Part shown: positions 9,757 through 53,753 of the stretch, one piece after another
Position numbering within the stretch: the stretch's first letter is position 1
Layout: every line of letters starts with the position of its first letter
Origin: Candidatus Saganbacteria bacterium
Lineage (GTDB): Bacteria; Margulisbacteria; WOR-1; XYC2-FULL-46-14; WPAF01
Length of the DNA: 64,000 bases
Assembly: GCA_016223205.1 (NCBI GenBank)
Contig: JACRPM010000006.1
Location: 209,228-273,227, forward strand
Direction: 5' to 3'
Position numbers and translations under genes: made by a program
Notes under the pieces: generated by a model
The model's input: only the letters and a program-made list of their open reading frames with translations
Database searches by the model: none
Told to the model about the DNA's origin: nothing

Positions 9757-10874
9757 TTGATGTTCAGGATCCTGGCCTTGGGGAACCCGTTAAAGGTAGT
9801 GGCGGAAGCGCTGCTGTAGGCCCCGATGTTATTTACGTACAAAAGGTCGCCGATCTTAAGGTCCGGCAGGTTTTCCGAAGTTGAGACCGTATCAAAGGCG
9901 TCGCAAGTCGGTCCTACCACCGCGGAAAGCTGCGGTTTACCCCGCTTAAATGATCTGAAATGATAGGGAATGTGGTCAAAGACCACGCCGCTTAAGGTGC
10001 CGTAAACCCCGTCATCGATGTAATAAACCATCTTATCGTCGCGTCGCGCTTTGCCCACGATCGATACTACCAGGGTGGCGGAGGTGGCGGCGATAAAGCG
10101 GCCGGGCTCGGCCACGATCTCCACCTCCTTGGGGAAGAGCCGGTCGATCTCCCGCCGGAGTTTTCCGGCCAGCTTGGTGAAAGCGATGACATTATCATCA
10201 TAAGGAACAGGGAAACCCCCGCCGATATTTAAAAGCTTGAGCCGCCATCCCCGCGATCCCATTTCCGCAAAAATGCCGGCCGAAGCCTCCAGCGCGTTTA
10301 GGTAATTTTCTATATTGAGACATTGGCTGCCTACATGGAAGCTCAATCCCTCGACCGTTAATCCCATTTTGAACGCCTGTTCAATAAGATTTGGCGCGTC
10401 GCCCGGCTCCACCCCGAATTTGCTGGAAAGTTCCACCACCGATCCCACATTGGCCACCTTGATGCGGCAGATAAGCCCGGCGTCGGGACAATATTTCTTT
10501 ATCTTCTTCAGCTCTTCGGGATTGTCATAGGTCATCAGGGTCCGGTGCCGCGCCATTTTTTTTAAGGTATTGATAGGTTTGATGGTATTGGCCATGATGA
10601 TGCGGTCGTAGATGAAAGCGGGCAGGTCGCGAAGGTGCTTTTGGGGAACGGCGCGCAGGACGGATTCGTATTCTTCGAGCGAGGCCACGTCGTATCCGGC
10701 GTTAAGCTCGGCCAGGGTCTTGATTATTTCCGGTTCGGGATTGGCCTTGATCGCGTAATAAAGTCCTACCCGGGGCAGATGCTTCCTTAAAGCCAGATAA
10801 TTCTTTTTGATGGTATCCTGGTCGATCAAAAGCAGGGGGGTGCCGTGTTTGCGGGCCGGCTCTTTGAGGTTCAT
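9753..10874 (-). CDS. Type III PLP-dependent decarboxylase (Orn/Lys/DAP decarboxylase family, alanine-racemase fold)
   Basis: YYAIKANPEPEIIKTL PLP-binding motif near the N-terminus; 373 aa; beta-barrel C-terminal region with ...GPTCDAFD... motif. Confidence 0.8.
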   Translation of the reverse strand: MNLKEPARKHGTPLLLIDQDTIKKNYLALRKHLPRVGLYYAIKANPEPEIIKTLAELNAGYDVASLEEYESVLRAVPQKHLRDLPAFIYDRIIMANTIKPINTLKKMARHRTLMTYDNPEELKKIKKYCPDAGLICRIKVANVGSVVELSSKFGVEPGDAPNLIEQAFKMGLTVEGLSFHVGSQCLNIENYLNALEASAGIFAEMGSRGWRLKLLNIGGGFPVPYDDNVIAFTKLAGKLRREIDRLFPKEVEIVAEPGRFIAATSATLVVSIVGKARRDDKMVYYIDDGVYGTLSGVVFDHIPYHFRSFKRGKPQLSAVVGPTCDAFDTVSTSENLPDLKIGDLLYVNNIGAYSSASATTFNGFPKARILNIN

Positions 10875-11992
10875 TTTTTCCGCTTCCGCGGTTTTAGCTT
10901 CTCAATGAACAAGGCATAAGCCAGGACGATCCCCAGCTCGTTCACGATGGCATCCAGATTGAACAATCCGCGCTTGCTGGGTGTTTCTCCTTGGTGTATG
11001 AAGAAGACGATCATTCCCAGATAGGTCCCTCCCGGCGCCAGAAGCGGTTTGGCGACAAAACTCTCGATCCCTTCATCTTTTAACAGGGACCCGAAATTCC
11101 GGTCCTCTTCCGACGGCATCCGGCCGGGCTTGAGCTTTGAAAGGAAATTATTGACGGCAGTGGGCACTCCGATACTGCACCTTTTATGATAATGGGCGTT
11201 TTTGGGATGGACCACCAAAACCGAGCCGGAATGGAGCTTGAGCAGTTTAAAGGTTTCTTCCAGCACCTTCTCCAGCATGTAATCCAGATCCTGCAGGCGG
11301 GTCAAGATCCAGGAGATGTTGCTGATGGCGGCAAACTCCTGTTGCGCGGTCTCTTCTTCCACCAGTATCTTTTTGAACAGGTGCCTTTCTTTAAGCAAAT
11401 AACCCGAAATAAAATAGACGGCCAGGCAGGCGCCCAAAAGCACCAGCGGCACTCCCAGGGCATTTAAGATGATGATGCGCCCGGAAATCGCCGGATTAAT
11501 TTGATCGGATAAGAACCGGGGAAAGATCGGAAGAGAACCGTTTAGGGTCATGAGGATCTGGCCTTCGTAAAAGACCAGGGTTGCCGCCAGCCAGATGAAC
11601 AGCCCGGCCCGATAGTAGGGGAAAATAAAAGCCGTCATCAGCAGGCTTAACAGGTAAAAAACGAAAAAGGGGTTTTCTCCTCCTCCGGTAAAGTAGATCG
11701 ACAAGGTGATCAACACGATATCCAATAACGTAATAAAGACCGAAAGGAAGACGATCTCCACCATGGCGATCATCTTTTGGGTTTTTAGAAAATACTGGGT
11801 AAGCAGGGAATAGGTGAAAAGGAACAACCCCAGGAACAATACGGCTTCCGTGCCCGGGGAAAAAGTGAGGCGCAAAAAACCCAGGGCGGCGAAATAGGCA
11901 AAAAAGAAGAATCCCAGCGCCAGCCGGAAGTTATTGACCAAGAGCAAGCGCTCGGCCAGCTCACTGCGGGTGAATACGGAGATTTTCGACAT
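10871..11992 (-). CDS. Integral membrane protein (about 6 TM helices) with a C-terminal GAF-like sensor domain
   Basis: Multiple hydrophobic helices in the first ~200 aa; C-terminal ~150 aa soluble region with GAF-like pattern; 4-bp overlap with the downstream decarboxylase gene. Confidence 0.5.
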   Translation of the reverse strand: MSKISVFTRSELAERLLLVNNFRLALGFFFFAYFAALGFLRLTFSPGTEAVLFLGLFLFTYSLLTQYFLKTQKMIAMVEIVFLSVFITLLDIVLITLSIYFTGGGENPFFVFYLLSLLMTAFIFPYYRAGLFIWLAATLVFYEGQILMTLNGSLPIFPRFLSDQINPAISGRIIILNALGVPLVLLGACLAVYFISGYLLKERHLFKKILVEEETAQQEFAAISNISWILTRLQDLDYMLEKVLEETFKLLKLHSGSVLVVHPKNAHYHKRCSIGVPTAVNNFLSKLKPGRMPSEEDRNFGSLLKDEGIESFVAKPLLAPGGTYLGMIVFFIHQGETPSKRGLFNLDAIVNELGIVLAYALFIEKLKPRKRKK

Positions 11993-12000
11993 GGGCCGTA

Positions 12001-39541: not shown

Positions 39542-41382
39542 CCAAGCTCCTCGAAACGCTTAATCTGCCGGAGGGCTTACGGGCGCTTTCGGCCAAACAA
39601 TTGGACCAGGTAGCGGCCGAGGTCCGTGAAAAAATAATCGAAGTCACCTCGAAAACCGGAGGCCATGTGGCCTCAAGCTTAGGCGCGGTCGAGATCGCCG
39701 TGGCCCTGCATGCCGCTTTCCGCTCCCCCAAAGATAAAATATTGTGGGATGTGGGCCATCAGGCCTATGCCCACAAGATCTTGACCGGCCGCCTCAAGGA
39801 ATTCTCGACGCTTAGGCAATATAAGGGCTTGAGCGGGTTTCCCAACATCAACGAAAGCCCGCACGACCAGTTCACGGTCGGGCATGCTTCAACCTCCATT
39901 TCCCAGGCGTTGGGTTTGGCGTGGGCCGGGGAGCTTGACGGTGAAAAACGATCGGTTGTGGCGGTGATCGGCGACGGCTCCCTTTCGGGCGGCCTTTCTT
40001 TTGAAGGCGTGAACAACCTGGACGGATTAAAGAACAACCTCATCGTGATCCTAAACGACAACGAAATGTCGATCTCCAAGAATGTGGGGGCTATCGCCAA
40101 TTATTTGACCCAATTCACGACTTCCGGGGCCTACTCGGACTTGCGCGATCGTATCGAGAAGGTGGTAAAACGCATTCCGCGCTACGGGGTCTCGCTTTTT
40201 GAGGCGGCCCGCCGTCTTAAGGACCGCACCAAGCATATCGTACTCGACTTCAAGGTGGATGTGATCTTTGAGGAGCTGGGCTTTAAATATTTCGGCCCGA
40301 TCGACGGGCACAACATACCGCTCATCATGAGCACGTTGGAACATGCCAAAGAAATCCCGGGCGGCGTGCTGATCCATGTACTGACCAAAAAAGGCAAGGG
40401 TTATAAACCGGCCGAGCAAGATCCCACCCGTTTCCACGGCACCGGGCCGTATGATATCGCGACCGGAAAGCCGACAAACGGCGGAAGTAAATCCTTAACC
40501 TACACCCAGGTCTTCGGCCGAACCATGGTCCGCCTGGCGGAGGAAAATCCCAAGCTCGTGGCGGTCACGGCGGCCATGATCGACGGCACCGGGCTTGAGG
40601 AATTCGCCCAGGGCAATCCCACCCGCTTTTTTGACGTCGGCATTGCCGAGGAGCATGCAGTCACCTTCGCGGGAGCCCTGGCCAAGGGCGGGTTCCGGCC
40701 GGTAGTGGCCGTCTATTCCACTTTCCTCCAGCGGGCATACGATGAGATCATCCACGATGTCTGCCTGCAGAACCTGCCGGTGGTGTTTGCCATCGATAGG
40801 GCAGGGATCGTGGGAGAAGACGGGGCCACGCACAACGGCATTTTTGATCTGGCTTATCTGCGTACGATCCCCAACCTAACGGTCATGGCCCCAAGTGACG
40901 ATCTGGAACTGGACGAAATGCTTGAATATGCGGTCAAACAGCCCGGCCCGGTCGCGATCAGGTATCCCCGGGGGATTGCCCCGAACAGGGAGAAAGTAGA
41001 AAATAGAAAATTGAAAATGGAAAATAGGATCGCTATCGTTGCAATTGGATCCATGGTCTCTCCCGCCAGAGAAGCTGCCCAAAAGCTGGGCAATGCCAAA
41101 GTCATCAACGCCCGGTTCATCAAGCCGCTCGACGAAAAGCTGATACTGGAGGCCGCCGGATCGGCCGACCTCGTGGTTACGGTCGAAGAAGGAACGCTTA
41201 ACGGGGGGTTCGGGTCGGCGGTTTTAGAGTTGCTTGCCGATAAGGGAATAAATAAGCAAGTTAAAAGGTTGGGATTGCCGGATGCATTCATTGAGCATGG
41301 GAAAAGAGAGGAAATATTGGACCTTTACGGATTAACCTCGGATAAGATCTATCAAAGCATATCGAGGGATCTCAACCGCTGA
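39538..41382 (+). CDS. dxs: 1-deoxy-D-xylulose-5-phosphate synthase
   Basis: TPP-binding GDGSLSGG...NDNEMSIS; transketolase-like pyrimidine and C-terminal domains. Linker after RYPRG is encoded by a heptamer repeat (REKVENRKLKMEN). Confidence 0.9.
   Translation: MTKLLETLNLPEGLRALSAKQLDQVAAEVREKIIEVTSKTGGHVASSLGAVEIAVALHAAFRSPKDKILWDVGHQAYAHKILTGRLKEFSTLRQYKGLSGFPNINESPHDQFTVGHASTSISQALGLAWAGELDGEKRSVVAVIGDGSLSGGLSFEGVNNLDGLKNNLIVILNDNEMSISKNVGAIANYLTQFTTSGAYSDLRDRIEKVVKRIPRYGVSLFEAARRLKDRTKHIVLDFKVDVIFEELGFKYFGPIDGHNIPLIMSTLEHAKEIPGGVLIHVLTKKGKGYKPAEQDPTRFHGTGPYDIATGKPTNGGSKSLTYTQVFGRTMVRLAEENPKLVAVTAAMIDGTGLEEFAQGNPTRFFDVGIAEEHAVTFAGALAKGGFRPVVAVYSTFLQRAYDEIIHDVCLQNLPVVFAIDRAGIVGEDGATHNGIFDLAYLRTIPNLTVMAPSDDLELDEMLEYAVKQPGPVAIRYPRGIAPNREKVENRKLKMENRIAIVAIGSMVSPAREAAQKLGNAKVINARFIKPLDEKLILEAAGSADLVVTVEEGTLNGGFGSAVLELLADKGINKQVKRLGLPDAFIEHGKREEILDLYGLTSDKIYQSISRDLNR
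40992..41026 (+). repeat. Imperfect tandem heptanucleotide repeat GAAAGTA GAAAATA GAAAATT GAAAATG GAAAATA followed by GG, in-frame inside dxs
   Basis: 5 x 7 bp = 35 bp, same architecture as the GAACACA repeats at 7611-7645 and 14962-14989. Confidence 0.8.
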
Positions 41383-42155
41383 CGGATCTTCCGCAGAGTA
41401 TCGGCTTTGATCTGCCGCGCACGCTCCCGGCATACATTATTTTGAGCGCCCGCTTCTTTCAAGGTCAAATCATCATCCATACACAGGTTTAGAAATATTT
41501 CCAGATTACGAGGTGTTAGCTTGCCTTCAGCGACCAATTGACGCAAAATCTTTTCAATCACCTTCATATCGTGGAATAATTCAAAGCCTTCAAAATCCTC
41601 CAATAAGCGGGGATCGATCGCCTCGATCTTTTTACCTTCGCCTTCTTCATTTTTCCGGACTTCATCCAGCGATCGTTCAACCCGAGGCAAACCTTTGATC
41701 TGTGCAACTTTTTCGATAGGCAGACCGGATGCTGCCGCCAATTCTTCGAGCGTCGGATCGCACTCCATTTGGGCGGCCAATTCTTTTTCGGTCCTTCTTA
41801 AACTTTTTGCCTGGTCCAGCATATGGTTGGGCACTCTTATCGCTTTATTATCTTTTAAAGACCGAACAATTCTATTTCTGATCCACCAAGTGACATAGGT
41901 AGATAATTTATTGCCGCGGGAGGCCTCGAATTTTTCTATGCCTATCAGCAGTCCGATCTGGCCCTCCTGGGCAAGGTCAAGCAAGCCGCCGCCGTAAGCG
42001 TTTCGATAACTATTGGCTTTTTTATAAACCAGCCCCTGGTTCTGGACCGCCGTCCGGTTCCTTTGCTCGATACGGTCGGGTTCGATCTGTGAGATTATTC
42101 GTTTAACTTCACGTATTCGAGTAAAAAGCGGCCGGTGGAAGGATCCGATATTCAT
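41352..42155 (-). CDS. Sigma-70 family RNA polymerase sigma factor (group 3-like, regions 2-4)
   Basis: Region 2 DLAQEGQIGLLIGIEKF...TYVTWWIRNRI; region 4 HTH at C-terminus; 267 aa; 31-bp overlap with dxs 3' end (convergent). Confidence 0.75.
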   Translation of the reverse strand: MNIGSFHRPLFTRIREVKRIISQIEPDRIEQRNRTAVQNQGLVYKKANSYRNAYGGGLLDLAQEGQIGLLIGIEKFEASRGNKLSTYVTWWIRNRIVRSLKDNKAIRVPNHMLDQAKSLRRTEKELAAQMECDPTLEELAAASGLPIEKVAQIKGLPRVERSLDEVRKNEEGEGKKIEAIDPRLLEDFEGFELFHDMKVIEKILRQLVAEGKLTPRNLEIFLNLCMDDDLTLKEAGAQNNVCRERARQIKADTLRKIRQRLRSLDML

Positions 42156-42940
42156 GAAAATATCGCGCCGTTAAGCCGCAAGTTGATAAGTCTAAGGGCT
42201 TTTTGGATGATAAGACTGATTCCCGCTCTGGTCAGGCAATGATCCCGCCCGATCTCTTCCATGCTCAAGGGCCTTTTACCGTGCGCCAGATACCTTTCTA
42301 ATATCGCCAAATTCCGCTTGGTTAACCTGCCTTCTTCCACCAGCTGATTTCCGGCTGAAATTATCTTCTCTTGCAGGTCGCGCCGGATGCAGATATCCTC
42401 GGGGGTTTCCACTCCGTTTAACTCCACACTCTCCAGCGGCACTCCCTGGTATTGGCGGGTGATATCGACCGATTTGACGAAAATGCGATCATCGATCTCA
42501 TCCAGCTGACGATCGTCGTATTTGTGCGCCCGGCTGCGGCCCATCCTGAAGTTTCCCACGATCAAGCCATCGAGCCGCCCTTGTTTGGCCATGTAGTTTA
42601 TTTTATAAGAGACCGTTCCCAGGCGGCTCGCCAGCTGGCCGGTAGAAAGCTCATGCGGCCCAAGGTGCGGGGATCGGGAAACCAAGATCTTCCTAAGTTT
42701 GGGGAGGTCGGATTTGCGAAAAACAGGAGACGGTTTTCCCTGAAGCGTGATCTCGCGCCTGACAAAGCGTTTATAAAACTTCCGGTTGCGCAAGGCCATC
42801 CGAATGGTTAATAAGTTAACCCTGGTATAACGCGCCAGCAGGGTGGTTGAAAGTTCGTCCGCCGCCAGATATTTTAAACCTCCCTGGTTTGCCCGGTGTA
42901 ATCCTAAAAGTTCCCGGCGAGTATTTGCAGTTAATGACAT
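42152..42940 (-). CDS. Sigma-70 region-4-like HTH protein (sigma-factor-like, no clear region 2)
   Basis: C-terminal LTKRNLAILERYLAHGKRPLSMEEIGRDHCLTRAGISLIIQKALRLI resembles region 4 of the adjacent sigma factor; 4-bp overlap with it. Confidence 0.45.
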   Translation of the reverse strand: MSLTANTRRELLGLHRANQGGLKYLAADELSTTLLARYTRVNLLTIRMALRNRKFYKRFVRREITLQGKPSPVFRKSDLPKLRKILVSRSPHLGPHELSTGQLASRLGTVSYKINYMAKQGRLDGLIVGNFRMGRSRAHKYDDRQLDEIDDRIFVKSVDITRQYQGVPLESVELNGVETPEDICIRRDLQEKIISAGNQLVEEGRLTKRNLAILERYLAHGKRPLSMEEIGRDHCLTRAGISLIIQKALRLINLRLNGAIFS

Positions 42941-44636: not shown

Positions 44637-45197
44637 ATGACAAACCTAAAGAAGATCGAAAAAGCGGTAAAAGAAATACTGATCGCCATCGGCGAAGACC
44701 CGAAGCGGGAAGGGCTCAAAGATACGCCTAAACGGGTAGCGAAGATGTACGCCGAGATCTTTTCGGGGCTCAAGACCGATCCCGCCAAAGTGATCACGCT
44801 CTTCAAACAGGCCGAACACGAAGAAATGGTGATGGTGAAGGACATCCCGTTCTATTCCGTTTGCGAGCACCATCTCATCCCCTTTATCGGCAAGGCCCAC
44901 GTGGTCTATATCCCCAAGGCCGGACGCGTTACCGGGCTTTCGAAATTGGTAAGGGTGATCGAAGGATTCGCCAAGCGGCCCCAGGTGCAGGAAAAACTCA
45001 CCACCCAGATCGCCGACACCTTAATGGCCCGCTTGCGGCCGCAAGGAGTTTTGGTTATAATCGAAGCCGAACATTTGTGCATGTCGATGCGGGGGGTGAA
45101 AAAACCCGGTTCCCTGACCGTTACCTCCGCGGTTAGAGGCGTGTTTGAAAAGAACGCTACCACCAGAATGGAGGCCCTGGAATTAATAAAAAGATAG
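44637..45197 (+). CDS. folE: GTP cyclohydrolase I
   Basis: [12 protein letters not shown] zinc-binding motif; 186 aa. Confidence 0.9.
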
Positions 45198-45283
45198 CGA
45201 TAATCCTGTTCGGTCTTTTTATTTTTGCTAACATTTCCTCGGCGGAAGATGTTACCACCGCGATCGATCCCACCCGCCTGGCC

Positions 45284-47014
45284 ATGGGTGCGCGGCCGTT
45301 GGCGTTGGGGCGGGCTTTCCTGGGGGAATCCGACGACGTGACCTCCATCTTTTCCAATCCCGCCGCTTTGGGCACCCTAAAAAATTGGCAAGCAACATCT
45401 CTGACGGGAAAATTCCTGAACGAAGTTGAATATGTCACCGGCGCTTATGCTTTCCCCACGGCCTACGGGACTTTCGGCATCGGCTATGTGGGCAGCGGCC
45501 TGGGAATTACCGCGCCGATCGCCACCCTTGAGGTGATAGACGGGGAATACCGCATCGTTCCATCATCCACCGAAGCCAGCTTTAATTATGTAACCCGCAC
45601 GGTTTTGCTTTCCTGGGCTAAAAAGCTCACCGCAAATATTTACGGCGCGGCCAATCTTAAGGTGCTTTTCACTTCGCTTACGGGATATCAAACCAGCAAC
45701 GCCGATTCCGCCAGCGGGCAACAGTTGGACCTTTCGCTTTTTTACAATCCCGAACGTTTCTATACCCTGGGATTGAACTGGCAAAACGTCCTGCCCGCAA
45801 GTTGGGGGGGGTTAACCTACGGCGACGGCTACCGCGAACCCCTGGGCCAGCTGGTAAAAGTTGGGACTAAGGTCTCACTGTTGGGAGATCGCTTAGCCCT
45901 GCGCGAACATAAGCAGTTCAAGCTCAATTTACTGTTGGACGCCGATGTTTCGTATGCCAGCCGGGTGATCCCCACCTTATTCCATACCGGATTGGAATTT
46001 TTCCCCACCCCCATATTGGCCCTGCGGGCGGGCGTGGACCAGGATTTTGTGGGGCCGGGGCAGATCGCCAATAATCTTACCGCCGGATTAGGATTTACCA
46101 CAGGGGGGGTCAAGTTCGATTACGCTTACCATCAATATAGCGAGCTCGCCAGCAATACCACCCACTATTTCTCCCTGGGATTCTCTCCGGAGTTAAGATA
46201 TCCACGGCCCTTTACCGTGGAGCAGCCCCCCAACCGTTTTATTTCATACGAAGATAAAATGCTGGTCGTCGGGAGAGTGGAAGACCTCGCCAATGTCCGG
46301 GTCTTAAAGATCGATAATGTCGAGGTAATGCCCGAAAGCGGCGGGCGCTTCGATTTTTATGCGCCGCTCAACCTTAAGCTGAACCTGATCACCCTGGAGG
46401 CCTTTGATAAGAACGGGAGGCTTTTAGGCAAACAGGAACTCAAAGGCCTGCGGCTTTTGACTTTTCGGGACCTCGATCCGGTGTATTTCGCCAAACTGCC
46501 CATAGAATATCTGGCGACGCTGGGGATCGTGACCGGCTATCCGGACGGGGCCTTCGAGCCGGGCGGCAAGGTCACCCGCGCCGAGATGTCGGCCCTGCTT
46601 ATCAGGGCCCAGGGAACACCCGAAGGAGAATCCTCTTCTGATTTTATTGATCTCAATAGAGATTACTGGGCTTACCAATACGTCAGCCGGGCGGCGGAGG
46701 AGGGGATCGTCAAAGGGTATCCCGATCAGACCTTCCGTCCCCAGGGCCAAATAACCCGCGCCGAAGGCGTGGCAATGATAGTAAGATATGCTAGAATACC
46801 GCACGGTCGGGTATATGAGCTTCCTTATAGCGATGTCCATGGAAGGCATTGGGCGATAGGGGAGATCACGGCGGCCAAGGAGATGGGTTTGCTTAAATAT
46901 CTGGGCGATGGTCCTTTCGAACCCGACCAGCCCTTGACCCGCGGAGAGGTAGCCGAGATGTTGTATCAAACCGATTATGTTAAACAGGAGATCAAAAAGT
47001 TATGGGGGGATTAA
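45284..47014 (+). CDS. Secreted/outer-membrane beta-barrel-like protein with three C-terminal SLH domains. True N-terminus probably upstream: an in-frame signal-peptide-like [19 protein letters not shown] at 45188-45244 without a canonical start.
   Basis: N-terminal ~300 aa with alternating amphipathic beta-strand pattern ending ...THYFSLGF. Three SLH repeats: YFAKLPIEYLATLGIVTGYPDGAFEPGGKVTRAEMSALL, YWAYQYVSRAAEEGIVKGYPDQTFRPQGQITRAEGVAMIV, HWAIGEITAAKEMGLLKYLGDGPFEPDQPLTRGEVAEML. Confidence 0.65.
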   Translation: MGARPLALGRAFLGESDDVTSIFSNPAALGTLKNWQATSLTGKFLNEVEYVTGAYAFPTAYGTFGIGYVGSGLGITAPIATLEVIDGEYRIVPSSTEASFNYVTRTVLLSWAKKLTANIYGAANLKVLFTSLTGYQTSNADSASGQQLDLSLFYNPERFYTLGLNWQNVLPASWGGLTYGDGYREPLGQLVKVGTKVSLLGDRLALREHKQFKLNLLLDADVSYASRVIPTLFHTGLEFFPTPILALRAGVDQDFVGPGQIANNLTAGLGFTTGGVKFDYAYHQYSELASNTTHYFSLGFSPELRYPRPFTVEQPPNRFISYEDKMLVVGRVEDLANVRVLKIDNVEVMPESGGRFDFYAPLNLKLNLITLEAFDKNGRLLGKQELKGLRLLTFRDLDPVYFAKLPIEYLATLGIVTGYPDGAFEPGGKVTRAEMSALLIRAQGTPEGESSSDFIDLNRDYWAYQYVSRAAEEGIVKGYPDQTFRPQGQITRAEGVAMIVRYARIPHGRVYELPYSDVHGRHWAIGEITAAKEMGLLKYLGDGPFEPDQPLTRGEVAEMLYQTDYVKQEIKKLWGD

Positions 47015-47015
47015 G

Positions 47016-50000
47016 ATGAAAAAGTTTATCTGGGTTTTGGTTATTGTATCTTGGTCATTGGTGATTGTCCTGCCAAAGGCGGGAGAGGCGGTATTGGCAA
47101 GGGGAATGACGGCTGCGGGTGTGACCATAAACAATACCCAGGGGGTTGCCGCCCAGCAGTATCCCAATATTATTGCGGACGGCGCCGGCAACACCATCGT
47201 GGCCTGGCATGATTATAAGTCGGGCATCGCCGCGCTCTATGCTCAAAGTTATGATGGCTCCGGAAATGCCCGCTGGTCTCCAGCCGCGGGAGTTCCCATC
47301 TGCACGGTAACCAATTTTTTTGGTACGATGATAGCCCTCGACAGCAACGCGCTGGCTTTCCATATGGTATCTGATGGGTCCGGAGGTGCGATCATCGCCT
47401 GGAACGACTACCGAACCGACGGCACGACTTCTCATGTTTATGCTCAGAGGATCAACAGCAGCGGCGTCGTACAGTGGACAGCGAACGGGAAACTAGTTTG
47501 CGATGCCGCGAATGGTCAGAGCTTGAATTCCATGGATATCGACGGCTCCGGCGGGGCCCTGCTGGCTTGGACCGACCTGCGCAATTTTGTCAACGGTTCC
47601 GACATCTATGTTCAAAGAATAGGAGGCAGCGACGGAGCGTCCCAATGGACGATCAACGGAGTGCAGGTTTATGATAATACAGCGCTGGGCGTGGGCGCCA
47701 ACCGTCCATCTATTATCAACAATGGTGGAGGGGCGATCGTTACCTGGGATGACAATCGGGCCAGCCCGTCTTATTATGGGATCTACGCGCAAAAGCTCAA
47801 CGCTAATGGGGGAGCAGTGGCGTGGGCCGCCAACGGAGTTGCGGTTCAGGTTAACGACACCGGCAGCGCCGTCAATCCCAAAATAGTTACAGACAACTCC
47901 GGGGGCGCCGTGATCGCCTGGTGGGATGAGCGTGTTAATCCGGGAGCTTCCCAATATGATGTTTTTTCGCAAAGGATCAACGCTTCGGGAGAAAAGGTTT
48001 GGACAACCCAGGGTGTCACCCTTTGCCTTCAATCCGACTATTCCGATAATAGCGTGGATATGGCCATAGTAACTGATACCGTAAATGGGGCAATTGTTTC
48101 CTGGCCGGACATGCGCAACGTGGGCGGAGGATACCGGATCTACGCGCAAAGAGTGGTGGCCAATGGAGGCGTCTCTTGGACTGCGGATGGCGTTGCGGTT
48201 AATACACTGCTCAACAACGATTCCAGTACTCGTCCCCGTATGGTAGCCGACGGTTCGGGGGGCGCCTATATAGCCACCTCCAATTATGGTTCGGGTGGCA
48301 CCCTCGATATCAGAGTCCACCGTATAAATTCAAGCGGGGAAACACCGGTGGGTTGGGCCGACGGAAAAGCGGTCAATGATACAGCTACGGTAGATGAGAG
48401 GAATCCGCGAGTCGCCTATGACACCATCAACGGCGTGGTGGTCGTGGTTTGGATGAATCAGGCGAATGATACCCGGGGCGATATTTGGGGACAGGCCCTA
48501 TCTTCGGGTGGAGCCTACGGCTGGGGCACTACCACCGGCAAAGAATTGATAGCCACCACCGGCGCCGCGACCCAAAGATATCCGGCGGTGGCGAGCGATG
48601 GAGCGGGGGGTGGTGTAACGGTCTGGGAAGACCAGCGTTCCGTCGATTATTACCAGATCTATTCCCAAAGGTTCAACAGCTCCGGCTCGGTCTTATGGGC
48701 GGCGGACGGGGTCCGTCTGGATAATACAGTACAGGATAACCTGCGTCCCTCGGTCTGCCGCACCTCCGACGGATATTACATAATGGCGTGGACCTCCGGT
48801 TCGACCATCTATGTGCAAAAAGTGAATTCTGATGGAACGGCGCAATGGGCGGCGGGCGGAGTAGCGGTTGCCAGTACTTTCGGTTCCGGATTTTATTATC
48901 CGGTGGTGGCTTCCGATGGCGCGGGCGGGGTGTTACTGGCTTATTCTGTTGGGGTGTCGGGAGCGGTCACCAAAACCAGCGCTAAACTGGGTGATCGGTT
49001 ATGGGCTTCTGCGTACTTGTCCGATATTTCTGAAGGGGAACTGCCTGATCTAAATGGGATTCTTTATGCAAAAGGCGATGGCGGGGGCGGGGGAGGGGGC
49101 GCAGGCACATTTCGTGTTTATTACAAACGTATCGCATCAGACGGCAGCATCGTAACCCCTTATGGAGGCGCAGTCCAGAATGCCACGTCTCTAGGTGTTT
49201 TGGCCACAACTTATCACGATGCGGTCAATGGGGAGATACAGCTCTGGCCGTCCATTGCAAAAGTGGATTCAACCAATGTTGTGATCACCTGGGATGACCG
49301 GCGGACGGTTGGTTCCGCCGCCTGGTATATTTATGCTCAAAAAGTGCTGATAGCCGACGGCATGAGGCAATGGACCGATGACGCCGTGGCGGTTACCTCG
49401 CCCGGTGGAACCGTAGCTACCTATTATCCCTGGATCGGGAGCAACGGGACCGATGGGACGGCGGTGGTAGCCTGGATGCAGAGCGCCACCAACGCGGCTG
49501 GATATAATTATAATATCCTGGCGAATAAATTGAGCAGCGCCGGGGCTTTGAACTGGTCTTCGGGGATAAATGTAGCGGCGGACGGGACACTCGATGAGAT
49601 CCGGCCCAAAGTTGCGGTCGATTCCTCCGGCAATTCCTTCTTCGTTTGGCAGGAAGGAACCTGGACCAGCGCCGATACACTGAATGCTTCAACCCTGCAT
49701 CCCAACGCCCCCACCATGAGCAACGGCGCCATCTACTCGCAACTGGTTGATTCTTCGGGTGCGCTTTCGGGCGCAAAATTCCAGGTCTCATCCTCGGCTG
49801 TCAATTTAAATTACGAAGCTCCGGACGTTACTACCACCAGCACCGCCGGAACCGATATCGTGGTTTATGACGCGGATATCTATGCCCAATCGGTAACTGG
49901 GGTGTCGGTCGCGGTAACTCCCACCGCGCCTACCGGTTTTTCCGGCACGGCTCAATCTTCCAGTTCCATACTATGGAGTTGGACGGACAATGCCAACAAC

Positions 50001-51104
50001 GAGACCGGATTCCGGCTGGTTAATTCCCAGACCAATTCGATCGTGGCGACCATCGCCACGGCCAACACCACATCATATTCCGAGACCGGCCTTTCGCCCA
50101 ATACCGCTTATCAGAGGACGATAGCGGCTTATACCGATGCCAACAGTTCGACTCCCACAGCGGTCACGGTCTACACTCTGGCCTCGATCCCGGACGAAAT
50201 GGCGGCCACAGCGGCCGAGACCTCCCTGGCCATAACCTGGGCGGTTGGGGACGGGACAACCTATAAAATGGAGAGAGCGGCCGCATCAACCGGCCCCTGG
50301 ACCACGCTTTCCTCGACCCTCACCTCCAAATCTTATAGCGATACCGGATTGACTGCCGGAACGACCTATTGGTACCGCTGTTCCTCGGCCAATGCCGATG
50401 GGGTCTGGTCGGCGGCCAGCGAACCTTATAGTTTTACTACCAGCACTTCGGGGGTCACCAGGCAATCGCCCACCATTGGCGGCACCAAGTCGTCGGGAAC
50501 CGGCCTGGCCATTGCCAGCAACGACTATATGTCCTCCACCGGAGATCTGAAGCTCAATGTCTCGGACCTTAATACCGACGGCCGGATCACTTCGGTTGTG
50601 GTACAGGTCTTCAACAGTTCAGGAGTAGAGGTTAGAAGGGTGGAAAGTTCGGAAGTATTAGCCTCTTATTCTGTAGCGGCTTTGCCGGCGGGCACTTATA
50701 GGGTACTGATCACCGCAACCAGCATCTATGGCACCACTTCGGTCAAGGAATTGACCGGCCTGAAGGTGTCCGACAAATTGCAGGTTACCAGCGCGCTGGT
50801 GGCTTATCCCACCGCGGTCTTGCAGAGCTCGATTTTGGCGCAGGGACACACCGCGGTGCAGATGGCTTACCAGCTAAGCAAGAACGGAAACGTCAGCATG
50901 GTCATCTACAACACCGCCGGACAGGTGGTCTATCGGGGCGATTATACTCCGGGCTCGAACGGCGGCAGCGCCGGGCCCAATGTGGCGAGCTGGGACGGCT
51001 ACACCGTGGCGGGAGTAAAGGCGGCGAGAGGGTTATATATCGTGCAGTTGATCGACCGGGACGGAAAGGCGCTTCTAGGCAAGGTGGTCGTGCCGGTCCA
51101 CTGA
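47016..51104 (+). CDS. Very large secreted repeat protein (1362 aa): signal peptide, about 15 tandem ~60-aa propeller-blade-like repeats, FN3-like domains, C-terminal FlgD-Ig / T9SS-type sorting-domain-like tail
   Basis: Start ATG 47016 with SD aaacaggag, 2 bp after previous stop. Repeats carry D-G-S-G-G-A-h-h-A-W-x-D and h-Y-A/S-Q-R/K-h-x-x-x-G-x-x-x-W motifs. FN3 at ...SILWSWTDNANNETGFRL.... C-terminus ...ASWDGYTVAGVKAARGLYIVQLIDRDGKALLGKVVV. Confidence 0.75.
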   Translation: MKKFIWVLVIVSWSLVIVLPKAGEAVLARGMTAAGVTINNTQGVAAQQYPNIIADGAGNTIVAWHDYKSGIAALYAQSYDGSGNARWSPAAGVPICTVTNFFGTMIALDSNALAFHMVSDGSGGAIIAWNDYRTDGTTSHVYAQRINSSGVVQWTANGKLVCDAANGQSLNSMDIDGSGGALLAWTDLRNFVNGSDIYVQRIGGSDGASQWTINGVQVYDNTALGVGANRPSIINNGGGAIVTWDDNRASPSYYGIYAQKLNANGGAVAWAANGVAVQVNDTGSAVNPKIVTDNSGGAVIAWWDERVNPGASQYDVFSQRINASGEKVWTTQGVTLCLQSDYSDNSVDMAIVTDTVNGAIVSWPDMRNVGGGYRIYAQRVVANGGVSWTADGVAVNTLLNNDSSTRPRMVADGSGGAYIATSNYGSGGTLDIRVHRINSSGETPVGWADGKAVNDTATVDERNPRVAYDTINGVVVVVWMNQANDTRGDIWGQALSSGGAYGWGTTTGKELIATTGAATQRYPAVASDGAGGGVTVWEDQRSVDYYQIYSQRFNSSGSVLWAADGVRLDNTVQDNLRPSVCRTSDGYYIMAWTSGSTIYVQKVNSDGTAQWAAGGVAVASTFGSGFYYPVVASDGAGGVLLAYSVGVSGAVTKTSAKLGDRLWASAYLSDISEGELPDLNGILYAKGDGGGGGGGAGTFRVYYKRIASDGSIVTPYGGAVQNATSLGVLATTYHDAVNGEIQLWPSIAKVDSTNVVITWDDRRTVGSAAWYIYAQKVLIADGMRQWTDDAVAVTSPGGTVATYYPWIGSNGTDGTAVVAWMQSATNAAGYNYNILANKLSSAGALNWSSGINVAADGTLDEIRPKVAVDSSGNSFFVWQEGTWTSADTLNASTLHPNAPTMSNGAIYSQLVDSSGALSGAKFQVSSSAVNLNYEAPDVTTTSTAGTDIVVYDADIYAQSVTGVSVAVTPTAPTGFSGTAQSSSSILWSWTDNANNETGFRLVNSQTNSIVATIATANTTSYSETGLSPNTAYQRTIAAYTDANSSTPTAVTVYTLASIPDEMAATAAETSLAITWAVGDGTTYKMERAAASTGPWTTLSSTLTSKSYSDTGLTAGTTYWYRCSSANADGVWSAASEPYSFTTSTSGVTRQSPTIGGTKSSGTGLAIASNDYMSSTGDLKLNVSDLNTDGRITSVVVQVFNSSGVEVRRVESSEVLASYSVAALPAGTYRVLITATSIYGTTSVKELTGLKVSDKLQVTSALVAYPTAVLQSSILAQGHTAVQMAYQLSKNGNVSMVIYNTAGQVVYRGDYTPGSNGGSAGPNVASWDGYTVAGVKAARGLYIVQLIDRDGKALLGKVVVPVH

Positions 51105-53753
51105 TCAGGCGGTTTCGGCCCAGCTGGGCCCGGCTCCGATCGTGATCTTAACGGGGATGGAAAGAGGTAAAGCTTTTTCCATCCCTTCTTTTACTATCTG
51201 CTTAATGTTTTCTACTGCTTCTTGGGGAACTTCAAATACCAGTTCATCGTGAACCTGCAAGATCAATTTTGAATTTTGACTTTTTACTTTTGAATTTATA
51301 TTGATCATGGCTACTTTGATCATATCCGCCGCCGTTCCTTGCACGGGCGTGTTGATGGCGGTCCTTTCTGCAAATGATCTCAATCCGTAGTTAGGCGAGT
51401 TAATATCGGGCAGGGGCCTTTTCCTGCCCAAAAGCGTGGTCACGAAGCCGTTCTCCTTGGCTTCCTTGATGGTCTTATCGATAAAGGCCTTGACCCCGGC
51501 ATATTTTATAAAATAATCATCTATGAATTTGGCGGCTTCGGTCTTTTTGATCTTAAGCTGTTTGGCCAGGCCGAAATCCGATAGCCCGTAGATCACGCCG
51601 AAATTAACCGTTTTGGCCGCCGCGCGCGTTATACCCAACTCATCGGCCACGGCCTGGTGGATATCCACATCCTTCTCAAAGGCCTCTTTCATCCTGCTAT
51701 CGCCGGATAAGTGGGCCAAAATGCGCAGTTCGATCTGTGAATAATCCGCCGCCACGATCACGGAACCCGCTTTTTGCGGGACGAAAGCGGATCTTATCAA
51801 TTTGCCCAATTCCCCGCGGATGGGTATGTTCTGCATGTTGGGATTCGAAGATGAGAGCCGCCCGGTCGAGGTTATGGTCTGGTTGAAGCTGGCATGGATG
51901 CGGCCGGTTTTGGGATTAATTAAAGTGGGGAGGACCTCGATGTAGGTGGACATAAGCTTGCTAAGCTGGCGGTATGAGGCCAGCTTTTGCGCGATCTCGA
52001 ACTTTTCGGATAATTCCTCAAGCACGCTGGAGTCGGTCGAGGGCCCGGTTTTGGTCCGCTTTAAAACGGGTATTTTGAGCTTTTCGAACAGGATATAGCC
52101 CAGCTGTTTGGGCGAATTCAGATTAAAGGTTTCTCCTGCAATGGCGAAGATGTTTCGCTCAAGATCATTCATTTGCGTTTTTAAGGTCTTGGCCAGGTCA
52201 TTTAACTTGCCGCAATCGACATATACTCCGGTCATCTCCAGATCGATCAGGATCGGCAAAAGGGGCATTTCCACCTTATAAAAGAGGTCGCTTAATCCTT
52301 CTTCTTTAAGCTTTTCCTTAAAGATCTCATATAGACCAAAGGTGACCTCGGCATCAGTGCAGGCGTATTGGGTTGCGACGTCGAGAGGTATGTCGGCAAA
52401 ACAGCCCTCTTCTTCCATGATCTCGTTCAATTTAAGCATCTCGTGGCGCCCCAGGTAATGCGCGCCGGTTTTTTTGAGCCCGTACCCGCCGGAAATGGGG
52501 TCAAGCAGGTAAGCGGCTACCATGGTGTCGAAATGGGGTGGGGCGACTTCGATCCCGTTATTTTTCAGGACTTCAATATCGTACTTGAGGTTATGGCCGA
52601 TCTTGAGCTTATCTGATGCGAAAATGGAATGTAGGGGCGGCCCTTGTGGCCGCCCGAGATCGCGGGCGGCGAAGGGGACATAATAGGCCTCACCGCTGGC
52701 CACGGAAAACGAAATGCCCACTATCTTGGCTTCAAACACGTTCAGTGAGGTGGTTTCGCAGTCAAAGGCGAAAGTGTCGACGGCTTGGAGTTTCTCAATT
52801 AGGGCTTTTAGCTTTTCCGGGGTATCGACGCAGTGGAAATCGAACTTGCTTAATTCTTCTCTTTTCTTCTCAACCACCGACCCGCGGGTGAACCCCGCGG
52901 TTTGCTCCCGGTATTTCTTGACCAGCGAATCAAATTCCATCTTCTCAAAGAAAGCCACCGCTTTGTCCCAGTCGGTCTTATATTCCTGAAGGTCGGCTTC
53001 GATGGGCACATCAAGCACAATGGTCGCCAGCCGGCGGCTCATGAGGGCCAGGTCCTTTTCGTCTGTCAGCTTGGCTTTCAGCTTGGGTTTTTTTATGTCG
53101 CCGGTATGCTCAAGCAGATTATCCAGGGTTTTATATTCTTTCAGCAGTTCGGTGGCGGTCTTTTCTCCGATCCCCGGGACTCCGGGGATATTATCGGAAG
53201 CGTCTCCTTTTAGGGCTTTAAAGTCGATCAGCTGATCGGGATCCAATCCGTATCTCTCTTTCACCGCTTTTTCATCGTAGAGCACCGTGTCGCTGATGCC
53301 TTTCCTTAAGGTCAAAACCTTGATCTGTTTATTGACGAGCTGGAGGGGATCGAGGTCGCCGGAGACGATCTCAACATTCATCCCCTTATCTGCTGATTGC
53401 TTAGCCAGCGTGCCGATCACGTCATCCGCTTCAAATCCGACTTTCTCAAAAATGGGGATAGAAAAGGCCTCGGCAGCTTCCCGCACGTAAGGCAGCTGTT
53501 CGATGAGGGTAGGTGGGGCCTTGTCGCGGGTGGCTTTGTATTCTTTATATTCCTTATGGCGGAAAGTTGGCTCCTTGAGATCGAAAGCGATGGCGATATA
53601 ATCCGGTTTTTCTTCGAGCAATTTAAGCAGCATGGTGGTAAAGCCGTAAATGGCATTGCTAACCAGACCGGTTGAGGTCTTCATGGTATCCGGCAGGGCA
53701 TAAAAGGCCCGGTAGGCCAGGGAATTGCCGTCGATCAGCATTACTTTCTTCAC
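51105..53753 (-). CDS. polA: DNA polymerase I (5'-3' exonuclease, 3'-5' exonuclease and polymerase domains)
   Basis: Pol motifs DYSQIELR (A), RRAAKTVNFGVIYG (B), VHDEL (C); Exo I FAFDCETTS; N-terminal 5' nuclease GxxxxDD region. Confidence 0.9.
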   Translation of the reverse strand: MKKVMLIDGNSLAYRAFYALPDTMKTSTGLVSNAIYGFTTMLLKLLEEKPDYIAIAFDLKEPTFRHKEYKEYKATRDKAPPTLIEQLPYVREAAEAFSIPIFEKVGFEADDVIGTLAKQSADKGMNVEIVSGDLDPLQLVNKQIKVLTLRKGISDTVLYDEKAVKERYGLDPDQLIDFKALKGDASDNIPGVPGIGEKTATELLKEYKTLDNLLEHTGDIKKPKLKAKLTDEKDLALMSRRLATIVLDVPIEADLQEYKTDWDKAVAFFEKMEFDSLVKKYREQTAGFTRGSVVEKKREELSKFDFHCVDTPEKLKALIEKLQAVDTFAFDCETTSLNVFEAKIVGISFSVASGEAYYVPFAARDLGRPQGPPLHSIFASDKLKIGHNLKYDIEVLKNNGIEVAPPHFDTMVAAYLLDPISGGYGLKKTGAHYLGRHEMLKLNEIMEEEGCFADIPLDVATQYACTDAEVTFGLYEIFKEKLKEEGLSDLFYKVEMPLLPILIDLEMTGVYVDCGKLNDLAKTLKTQMNDLERNIFAIAGETFNLNSPKQLGYILFEKLKIPVLKRTKTGPSTDSSVLEELSEKFEIAQKLASYRQLSKLMSTYIEVLPTLINPKTGRIHASFNQTITSTGRLSSSNPNMQNIPIRGELGKLIRSAFVPQKAGSVIVAADYSQIELRILAHLSGDSRMKEAFEKDVDIHQAVADELGITRAAAKTVNFGVIYGLSDFGLAKQLKIKKTEAAKFIDDYFIKYAGVKAFIDKTIKEAKENGFVTTLLGRKRPLPDINSPNYGLRSFAERTAINTPVQGTAADMIKVAMININSKVKSQNSKLILQVHDELVFEVPQEAVENIKQIVKEGMEKALPLSIPVKITIGAGPSWAETA

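Follow-up and report, generated by a model that had tools for sequence, protein, structure and literature searches.

A 64,000-nt stretch of contig JACRPM010000006.1 from Candidatus Saganbacteria (Margulisiibacteriota; assembly GCA_016223205.1, forward-strand positions 209,228-273,227), hereafter the window, encodes a 610-residue precursor (45182..47014, +; stop codon TAA at 47012-14) that we call PorV-SLH. Profile searches and a structure model strongly support the presence of a PorV-like outer-membrane barrel and a Sap-like triad of S-layer homology (SLH) domains in this one polypeptide. It is likewise strongly supported that PorV-like genes of this kind are tightly paired with genes for proteins ending in an immunoglobulin (Ig)-like C-terminal domain (CTD). 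In the window the partner is the gene directly 3' of PorV-SLH, which encodes a secreted protein of 1362 residues (47016..51104, +), termed cargo here, with signal peptide, repeats, fn3 domains and CTD. The best overall explanation, which we consider probable although far from settled, is that a wall-tethered PorV-like barrel holds the CTD of the giant product of the adjacent gene; the pair suggests an undescribed surface-anchoring device. Our literature search retrieved no paper on a PorV-like barrel fused to SLH domains, nor on this protein family.

Architecture of a barrel fused to SLH domains

A first-pass annotation, made from the DNA letters, had proposed a signal peptide, a barrel, a linker domain and three C-terminal SLH domains, and this order was borne out by PF00395, NF033709 and AlphaFold (AF2). 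The AF2 model of the precursor, built with 56 homologues and reaching a mean predicted local distance difference test (pLDDT) score of 90.1, places a signal helix, short plug helices, 14 strands, a beta-sandwich (residues 344-424) and three SLH units one after the other. The signal peptide (residues 1-21; 45182..45244, +) consists of the n-region NKK, a 12-residue h-region (mean Kyte-Doolittle value 3.1) and the c-region NISSA with predicted cleavage before ED; residues 3-18 are helical in the AF2 model, and equivalents are present in homologues that start with ATG. The following conserved segment (DPTRLAMGARPLALGRAF...NPAALG; 45245..45385, +), which contains the mis-annotated ATG 45284, probably forms a plug or hatch in the barrel. 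Its residues D29, G36, A37, R38, G43, N59 and P60 are near-invariant across the 56 homologues, it folds into short helices in the AF2 model and corresponds to the N-terminal part of the PorV/PorQ profile in the alignment.

The barrel (45386..46183, +) comprises 14 strands (residues 70-334) and is of the FadL/PorV type according to AF2, Foldseek, NF033709 and a profile match in the PDB, as had been suspected from its N-terminus alone. Its final strand ends in THYFSLGF (46160-46183), a sequence singled out earlier as resembling a terminal strand of outer-membrane proteins and now placed as the last of the 14 AF2 strands; it is a typical beta-signal that is internal here. The best match in NCBIfam was the PorV/PorQ family NF033709 (E=1.9e-22, residues 28-335, profile positions 4-325 of 326), with weaker matches to the PorQ and PorV2 models. 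No Pfam family besides SLH matched the window protein at E<=1, and consequently none of the FadL, OMPP1 and Toluene_X models did. Of the relationships to FadL, PorV and OMPP1 models considered at first, the one to PorV/PorQ was thus the best match, albeit under its cut-off, and those to FadL and OMPP1 fell away. In a Foldseek search of the PDB the top rank went to PorV of the SprA translocon from Flavobacterium (6h3i_F; E=1.7e-11, template modelling (TM) score 0.68), ahead of TbuX, TodX and FadL (E about 1e-8), with which the likeness is at the level of the fold only. With the sequence profile of the family, PorV was the sole barrel matched in the PDB (E=8.6e-4), alongside Sap (E=3e-24).

Behind the barrel lies a Pro-rich linker with an Ig-like beta-sandwich spacer (residues 335-424, AF2 strands 344-424; 46184..46453, +), predicted to be periplasmic. 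Several homologues match PF09136 (Glucodextran_C) in this part, and there is weak similarity to a domain of glucodextranase (1ug9). The three tandem SLH domains (46454..47011, +) occupy 46454-46636, 46637-46819 and 46820-47011 and carry the motifs TRAE (residues 465-468), TRAE (525-528) and TRGE (586-589); PF00395 recognises them in three stretches with 122.9 bits (gathering threshold 20.8). SLH is the usual wall-binding domain in Terrabacteria. In Foldseek comparisons the SLH part resembled Sap (3pyw, TM 0.84; 6bt4, TM 0.83) and complexes of the SLH domains of SpaA with pyruvylated secondary cell-wall polymer (TM about 0.8). Barrels of this type have both ends on the periplasmic side, and the spacer and SLH triad would therefore be periplasmic as well, so that the seemingly reversed order of domains is topologically sound.

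Each part of this protein is familiar, yet the combination differs from the closest known systems. OmpM/Slp/SomA (8BYM, 7ZGX), from the same broad clade, likewise unite an outer-membrane barrel and periplasmic SLH in one polypeptide, and the wall ligand, a CsaB-dependent pyruvylated polymer, is presumably the same. The order is inverted relative to OmpM/Slp, as had been recognised beforehand, with an N-terminal barrel and three C-terminal SLH domains; there are three SLH per chain instead of one per trimer subunit, no coiled-coil stalk, and a barrel of the FadL/PorV type instead of a porin barrel. OmpA offers the same logic, an N-terminal barrel with internal beta-signal and, behind it, a wall-binding domain that is C-terminal and lies in the periplasm, but its barrel has eight strands, the wall module is OmpA_C, and the modules of the two proteins are unrelated in sequence or fold. 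The triads of Sap (3PYW, 6BT4) and SpaA (6CWC, 7SV4) share the three tandem SLH domains, modelled here as a pseudo-trimer (TM 0.8) with two TRAE and one TRGE; they are N-terminal anchors of S-layer proteins in monoderms, whereas the triad described here is C-terminal, periplasmic and found in a diderm. Since the protein scores under the cut-off of the PorV/PorQ family, has a different domain order from OmpM and does not match the hidden Markov model (HMM) of FadL, it is not to be filed as PorV, OmpM or FadL and is built anew from known parts.

About 57 full-length homologues share this architecture. A scan of one genome per species with a 16-sequence alignment yielded 53 loci, nearly all from Margulisiibacteriota, Saganbacteria or WOR-1 and often with three to four paralogues per genome; this distribution marks the family as specific to Margulisiibacteriota/Saganbacteria. 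When the barrel by itself served as query in an exhaustive search, 169 clusters came up at E<=1e-30, a number that rose to 1858 at E<=1e-3. Among the best 150 clusters (50% identity), 97 had SLH domains, 32 consisted of the barrel only and 21 ended in other tails, i.e. Glu/Lys/Arg coiled-coil, Pro/Lys-rich and, once, LysM-like ones, which we read as periplasmic too. This exchange of SLH for other tails among close clusters fits a barrel that was repeatedly joined to wall- or periplasm-binding modules. Examples of such tail-swapped relatives are P0086, P0094 and P0141 (coiled-coil), P0121 and P0168 (Pro/Lys-rich) and P0179 (LysM-like). For ten barrel relatives without SLH, one organism name was found, and it was Margulisiibacteriota; some relatives have been named PorV/PorQ family proteins by NCBI (P0047, P0098). 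A survey of outer-membrane tethers reported OmpM in these phyla and recorded CsaB for Saganbacteria genomes in its supplement (Witwinowski et al., bioRxiv 10.1101/2021.05.31.446380). In the one genome that we cross-checked, the family member P0020 (OGC23703.1) is listed as SLH protein of a CsaB-positive genome, with a different protein in the OmpM column. Thus, beyond what the first-pass annotation had noticed, PorV-SLH belongs to a conserved multi-paralogue family of one phylum, follows an OmpA-like logic and is paired with a giant protein bearing a CTD.

Pairing with CTD-bearing giant proteins

The cargo protein is built of ~14 repeats of ~65 residues with the consensus SDGxGGAI..W.D.R.G..DIYAQRV...G...W...GV.C (47016..~50000, +), fn3 domains, a signal peptide and a C-terminal sorting-type domain. 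This CTD (50802..51101, +) is an Ig-like domain of the type A kind known from type IX secretion systems (T9SS) or of the FlgD_ig kind, according to TIGR04183, PF13860 and AF2. Scored against TIGR04183 as part of the whole protein (residues 1285-1359 of 1362) it reached 23.2 bits, and the domain taken alone 26.4 bits, a small margin over the cut-off of 23; against PF13860 (FlgD_ig; gathering threshold 27) it reached 30.3 bits; the AF2 model is a seven-strand sandwich (pLDDT 81.6). More than 2600 homologues of the repeat family were found, and many of these are ~1000-1100 residues long with FlgD_ig or Por_Secre_tail ends. Named relatives come from Kiritimatiellae and Chloroflexota as well as from Bacteroidales, Krumholzibacteria and Eisenbacteria, the latter three being the named examples for T9SS-type tails. 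Horizontal transfer of a T9SS-type cargo family may lie behind this distribution.

An iterative search from the cargo CTD over all open reading frames (ORFs) of the fetched loci (53 loci and the window) identified 35 ORFs with such a domain, which in every full-length case lies at the C-terminus or within 16 residues of it. After removal of duplicates 34 remained. For 30 of these, a PorV-like gene lies no more than 150 bp away in the same orientation, with the CTD gene on either side of it. None of the 34 was found at 151-3000 bp, and four lie in the 460 kb of sequence beyond that distance. The partner proteins are large and secreted (350 to >3300 residues) and include beta-helix, Big and fn3 types. 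Sixteen of 28 neighbour CTD tails matched TIGR04183, ten matched the tail of PorU and eight that of PorZ, and several contain a YPNPF(N/S)P motif. Distances between barrels were correlated with distances between their CTDs (r=0.63 over 29 pairs, a value reached in 0/2000 permutations), while SLH distances of the same barrel proteins were not to a comparable degree (r=0.12, 29 pairs), which argues for co-divergence specific to the barrel. The pairing with CTD genes extends to relatives that consist of the barrel only and have no SLH (L049, L054, L059). Clustering of flanking genes did not reveal a recurrent third component beside the pairs. A cargo homologue from outside Margulisiibacteriota (L061) has no barrel neighbour, and the pairing therefore appears to be a feature of this phylum.

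Some loci depart from the simple two-gene arrangement. In a dense cluster in locus L026 (659..16187), two PorV-SLH genes in tandem occur together with two CTD genes and a third one, a fourth CTD gene being on the other strand, and in L024 two CTD genes precede a single barrel gene. In L006 (3154..5943) a secreted protein of 929 residues with a C-terminal Peptidase_S74 domain and no CTD is encoded between two PorV-SLH genes; Peptidase_S74 is an intramolecular chaperone domain of the tail-spike type.

How such a pair might work can be outlined step by step. Translation would start at ATT 45182, 7 nt behind a GGAGG motif and in a 16-nt overlap with folE, and this start, possibly coupled to folE translation, might keep expression low or regulated. 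The precursor would be exported by Sec and cleaved after SSA, and the barrel assembly machinery (BAM) would insert the barrel by way of its internal beta-signal. In the periplasm, the SLH triad would bind the pyruvylated secondary cell-wall polymer on peptidoglycan and tether the outer membrane, while the outer face of the barrel would capture the Ig-like CTD of the neighbour and display the giant protein on the cell surface. The contact between SLH and wall is predicted from the TRAE-type motifs, the CsaB recorded for other Saganbacteria genomes and the alternative tails of barrel relatives, that between barrel and CTD indirectly from gene pairing and co-divergence. The barrel-CTD pair could then be regarded as a counterpart of the PorV-PorU, PorQ-PorZ and PorP(SprF)-PorE-cargo complexes of Bacteroidota, with the wall link fused to the barrel.

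In Bacteroidota the tails of PorU and PorZ are retained and stay bound to PorV and PorQ. PorV (LptO) and PorQ share with the Saganbacteria protein the 14-stranded FadL-type barrel with N-terminal plug and, in a putative partner, an Ig-like CTD of type A/FlgD_ig that most resembles the retained tails of PorU and PorZ; they differ from it in lacking the C-terminal Ig spacer and three SLH domains. The attachment complex consists of PorQ, PorU, PorV and PorZ (PMC12365241). The nearest working analogy is offered by PorP/SprF, 14-strand barrels that bind CTD cargo encoded alongside and are connected to peptidoglycan by a second protein, PorE (Gorasia et al. 2022, PMC9143113). In both systems the barrel gene adjoins a CTD cargo gene, with surface anchoring of the cargo and a peptidoglycan link being predicted for ours. 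The wall module of PorV-SLH is fused and of the SLH kind, in contrast to PorE, a lipoprotein of its own with an OmpA_C-type domain; the CTD resembles type A and not the type B of PorP/SprF cargo, and the barrel is closer to PorV/PorQ than to PorP/SprF.

Several points weigh against a barrel that holds the CTD of its neighbour. The NF033709 score of 80.3 bits stays under the curated cut-off of 90. The best PDB matches of the cargo CTD were PorZ (5m11), FlgD (3c12) and PorU (6za2), all of them weak (E about 2e-3) and giving no distinction between a T9SS CTD and FlgD. The correlation between barrel and CTD distances could partly arise from slower, saturated evolution of the SLH part, barrels of paired and solo genes are of equal length (medians 302 and 299.5, p=0.90), and the start at ATT 45182 is itself inferred. 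With regard to a route of the 1362-residue protein across the outer membrane, neither the window nor the flanks yielded SprA/Sov, PorK-N or PorU. Finally, about half of the family genes are solo: they occupy housekeeping contexts and lack a CTD gene beside them. The family must therefore have some role besides cargo holding; tethering may be the general role and cargo holding a specialisation.

Most of the solo genes belong to one of two groups. The first has the gene order pheA, small membrane protein, PorV-SLH, argS, ilvE, acpS, carbohydrate kinase, mlaE, mlaF and mlaD and thus adjoins the outer-membrane lipid-asymmetry system (mlaEFD); it is found in L008, L012, L014, L016, L017, L020, L022 and L039, around 9900-12000 in each. 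The second is a subclass of ~550 residues, always head-to-head with lepA and with no CTD neighbour (L041, L048, L051, L052, L053, L057), one member of which (P0047) is the NCBI-named PorV/PorQ family protein mentioned above.

Taken by themselves, these solo paralogues next to pheA-X-argS-ilvE...mlaEFD or lepA, the equal barrel lengths and the fold resemblance to the transporters FadL, TodX and TbuX would agree with a protein that is only a tether between outer membrane and wall, perhaps doubling as a channel through which hydrophobic substrates pass in the manner of FadL, and that stands beside CTD genes owing to co-regulation or co-inheritance of envelope genes and not to physical binding; SLH triad and barrel are enough for tethering. 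We nevertheless consider this rather unlikely, given the position of 30 of 34 CTD genes within 150 bp of a barrel gene, on the same strand and on either side, CTD divergence that follows the barrel and not the SLH domains, the pairing of barrel-only relatives with CTD genes, and the binding of CTDs by the closest characterised barrels, PorV and PorQ.

Alternatively, PorV-SLH might be a genuine PorV orthologue, the cargo shuttle of a complete but unrecognised T9SS in Margulisiibacteriota. PorV/PorQ as both best HMM and best fold, the TIGR04183-positive neighbour and the abundance of the cargo repeat family in proteins with T9SS-type tails point in this direction. However, the equivalog models of PorV and PorQ scored as low as 16 and 36 bits (cut-offs 250 and 220) in addition to the sub-threshold family score, and many paralogues per genome, each beside its own cargo gene, contrast with the single PorV of T9SS organisms. 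Family clustering recovered none of the core genes SprA/Sov, PorK-N and PorU in the 64-kb window or as recurrent neighbours in ~870 kb of flanks, the cargo homologue L061 stands without a barrel, and a literature search returned nothing that links T9SS to Margulisbacteria, Margulisiibacteriota, Saganbacteria or Melainabacteria. A complete T9SS is therefore improbable in our view.

Returning to the tethered barrel that holds its neighbour's CTD, a more far-reaching version is conceivable, and we put it forward tentatively, as somewhat less likely to be right than wrong. Margulisiibacteriota, which are on the Terrabacteria side as sisters of Cyanobacteria and outside the group known for T9SS, might use a family of wall-tethered PorV-like barrels as dedicated anchors, each holding one giant protein by its type A-like CTD and pinning the outer membrane via SLH, in a system that is independent of, or ancestral to, the T9SS of Bacteroidota and represents a third tether architecture beside OmpM and OmpA/Pal. 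If true, the combination of CTD and FadL-type barrel, so far regarded as peculiar to the Bacteroidota T9SS, would also occur in a distant phylum and in a simpler two-gene form. Diderm Terrabacteria would possess a second SLH-based outer-membrane tether with inverted topology, which bears on models of how outer membranes are held or lost. For an uncultured phylum, the paired genes would further supply a set of candidates for surface or S-layer proteins.

A probable ATT start codon within folE

The first-pass annotation had noted a signal peptide in frame upstream of the annotated ATG 45284 and no canonical start ahead of it, and this holds: frame 2 is open from 45149, after TGA 45146-48, and contains no ATG, GTG or TTG between 45149 and ATG 45284. 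Its list of available codons, ATT 45182 and CTG 45206, was correct for both but incomplete, with ATA 45194, ATA 45200 and ATC 45203 as further near-cognate codons in the leader. A GGAGG Shine-Dalgarno-like motif (45170..45174, +) lies within the folE coding sequence, 7 nt upstream of ATT 45182, and is invariant in the window and three relatives. Internal operon genes of the window are likewise preceded by GGAG/GAGG motifs, and the annotated ATG 45284 has no Shine-Dalgarno sequence.

Starts were compared with the three closest relatives (L002, L003, L004; 88, 83 and 71% protein identity), which derive from other samples and assemblies. All three have folE directly upstream and keep the ATT, the GGAGG and the 16-nt folE overlap, the junction ...ATGGAGGCC(C/T)TGG(A/C)ATTAATAAAAA... 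is unchanged, and none possesses a canonical start ahead of the signal peptide. A lone TTG in L003, chosen by the gene caller, is situated in the middle of the hydrophobic core of the signal peptide. Distant homologues begin with an ordinary ATG and a signal peptide, followed by the motif xxDPTR(L/I)GVGARPLGMGKA. Met35, the annotated start, falls within this family-wide motif, at a position occupied by V, I or L elsewhere in the family. A protein beginning there would thus have a conserved domain cut and the export signal missing. The 12 codons from the cleavage site to Met35 differ from those of the relatives by 4-6 synonymous and 0-1 non-synonymous changes, and dN/dS in the entire leader (0.20-0.28) compares with 0.09-0.17 over the remainder of the gene. 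By these measures, the codons 5' of the annotated ATG evolve as coding sequence under purifying selection.

Both the conservation of ATT, GGAGG and folE overlap in the relatives and the coding-like evolution of the leader mark the annotated 576-residue start as wrong, and it is strongly supported by sequence comparison that translation must begin upstream of ATG 45284. The start is most likely ATT 45182 (45182..45184, +), perhaps aided by coupling to folE translation, as it is the sole near-cognate codon kept in 4/4 genomes, lies 5' of the n-region NKK and is well spaced from its Shine-Dalgarno motif. The signs of a non-AUG (AUU) gene were present, namely no canonical start before the conserved N-terminus and a conserved near-cognate codon with Shine-Dalgarno sequence. 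AUU-initiated genes are known from E. coli in infC and pcnB. The similarity to these lies in ATT with a good Shine-Dalgarno sequence as the only plausible start; here, however, the start is inside the preceding gene, where coupling to termination is possible, and there is no sign of autoregulation of the IF3 type. The public gene models of the clade are shortened by 34 residues and have lost the signal peptide, which, if this reading of the start is right, makes a concrete case of gene callers misled by non-AUG initiation.

Of the two options raised initially, a non-canonical start or a sequencing error, the former is backed by the three other assemblies and the leader substitutions and the latter is excluded, as is a pseudogene. 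It is very improbable that the absent start reflects an artefact or defect (sequencing error, pseudogene, initiation at ATG 45284 without signal peptide, or a programmed -1 frameshift out of folE), even though the public calls for the window protein and two close relatives all begin at MGARPL and an A-run occupies the overlap, given that the window and three assemblies from other samples agree, the leader is under purifying selection in frame, a barrel without signal peptide could not reach the outer membrane, ATG 45284 has no Shine-Dalgarno sequence, and a FolE-barrel fusion with internal signal peptide makes no biological sense. The A-run reads A AAA AGA in the window (45186..45197) and forms the canonical -1 slippery heptamer A AAA AAC only in L003 (about 2162..2173); it is probably a by-product of the Lys-Lys n-region. 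A scan of the window for other genes with long start-less leaders returned many, owing to overlapping frames, and was uninformative.

Operon context and further features of the window

PorV-SLH is the third gene of an fhs-folE-X-cargo operon. With 100% identity, the product annotated at 45284..47014 (576 residues) matches a protein of the same taxon that NCBI calls "S-layer homology domain-containing protein". Its 5' neighbour folE (GTP cyclohydrolase I; 44637..45197, +) was identified from the ORF list and by PF01227 on the orthologous gene in L001-L004, and ends with TAG at 45195-97, so that its last 16 nt overlap the start of PorV-SLH. No promoter- or terminator-like sites were seen between folE and PorV-SLH, and an Rfam search of the window gave no match, so there is no known RNA element at the folE junction. 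The cargo gene is kept downstream of the PorV-SLH orthologues in L001/L002 and L005. In the window it is followed by a terminator-like hairpin with a 14-bp stem (51153..51186, +), the likely end of the fhs-folE-porV(SLH)-cargo operon.

Elsewhere in the window, two adjacent genes of ~265 residues (41352..42940, -) between dxs and fhs resemble sigma-70-type factors by eye. An ORF of 1990 residues (1812..7784, +) has no Pfam match at E<=0.001 and does not carry the CTD of the cargo proteins. For ~13 to 16 of 38 confident genes of the window, a TATAAT-like box ends roughly 4-10 nt before the start codon with no Shine-Dalgarno sequence (starts at 7798, 10871(-), 12001(-), 12597, 14292(-), 15687(-), 16244, 19068, 27464, 33776, 34621, 51105(-, polA) and 62977). 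These genes are mostly the first of their operons, while internal operon genes have GGAG/GAGG, and the pattern looks like widespread leaderless mRNAs in this Saganbacteria genome.

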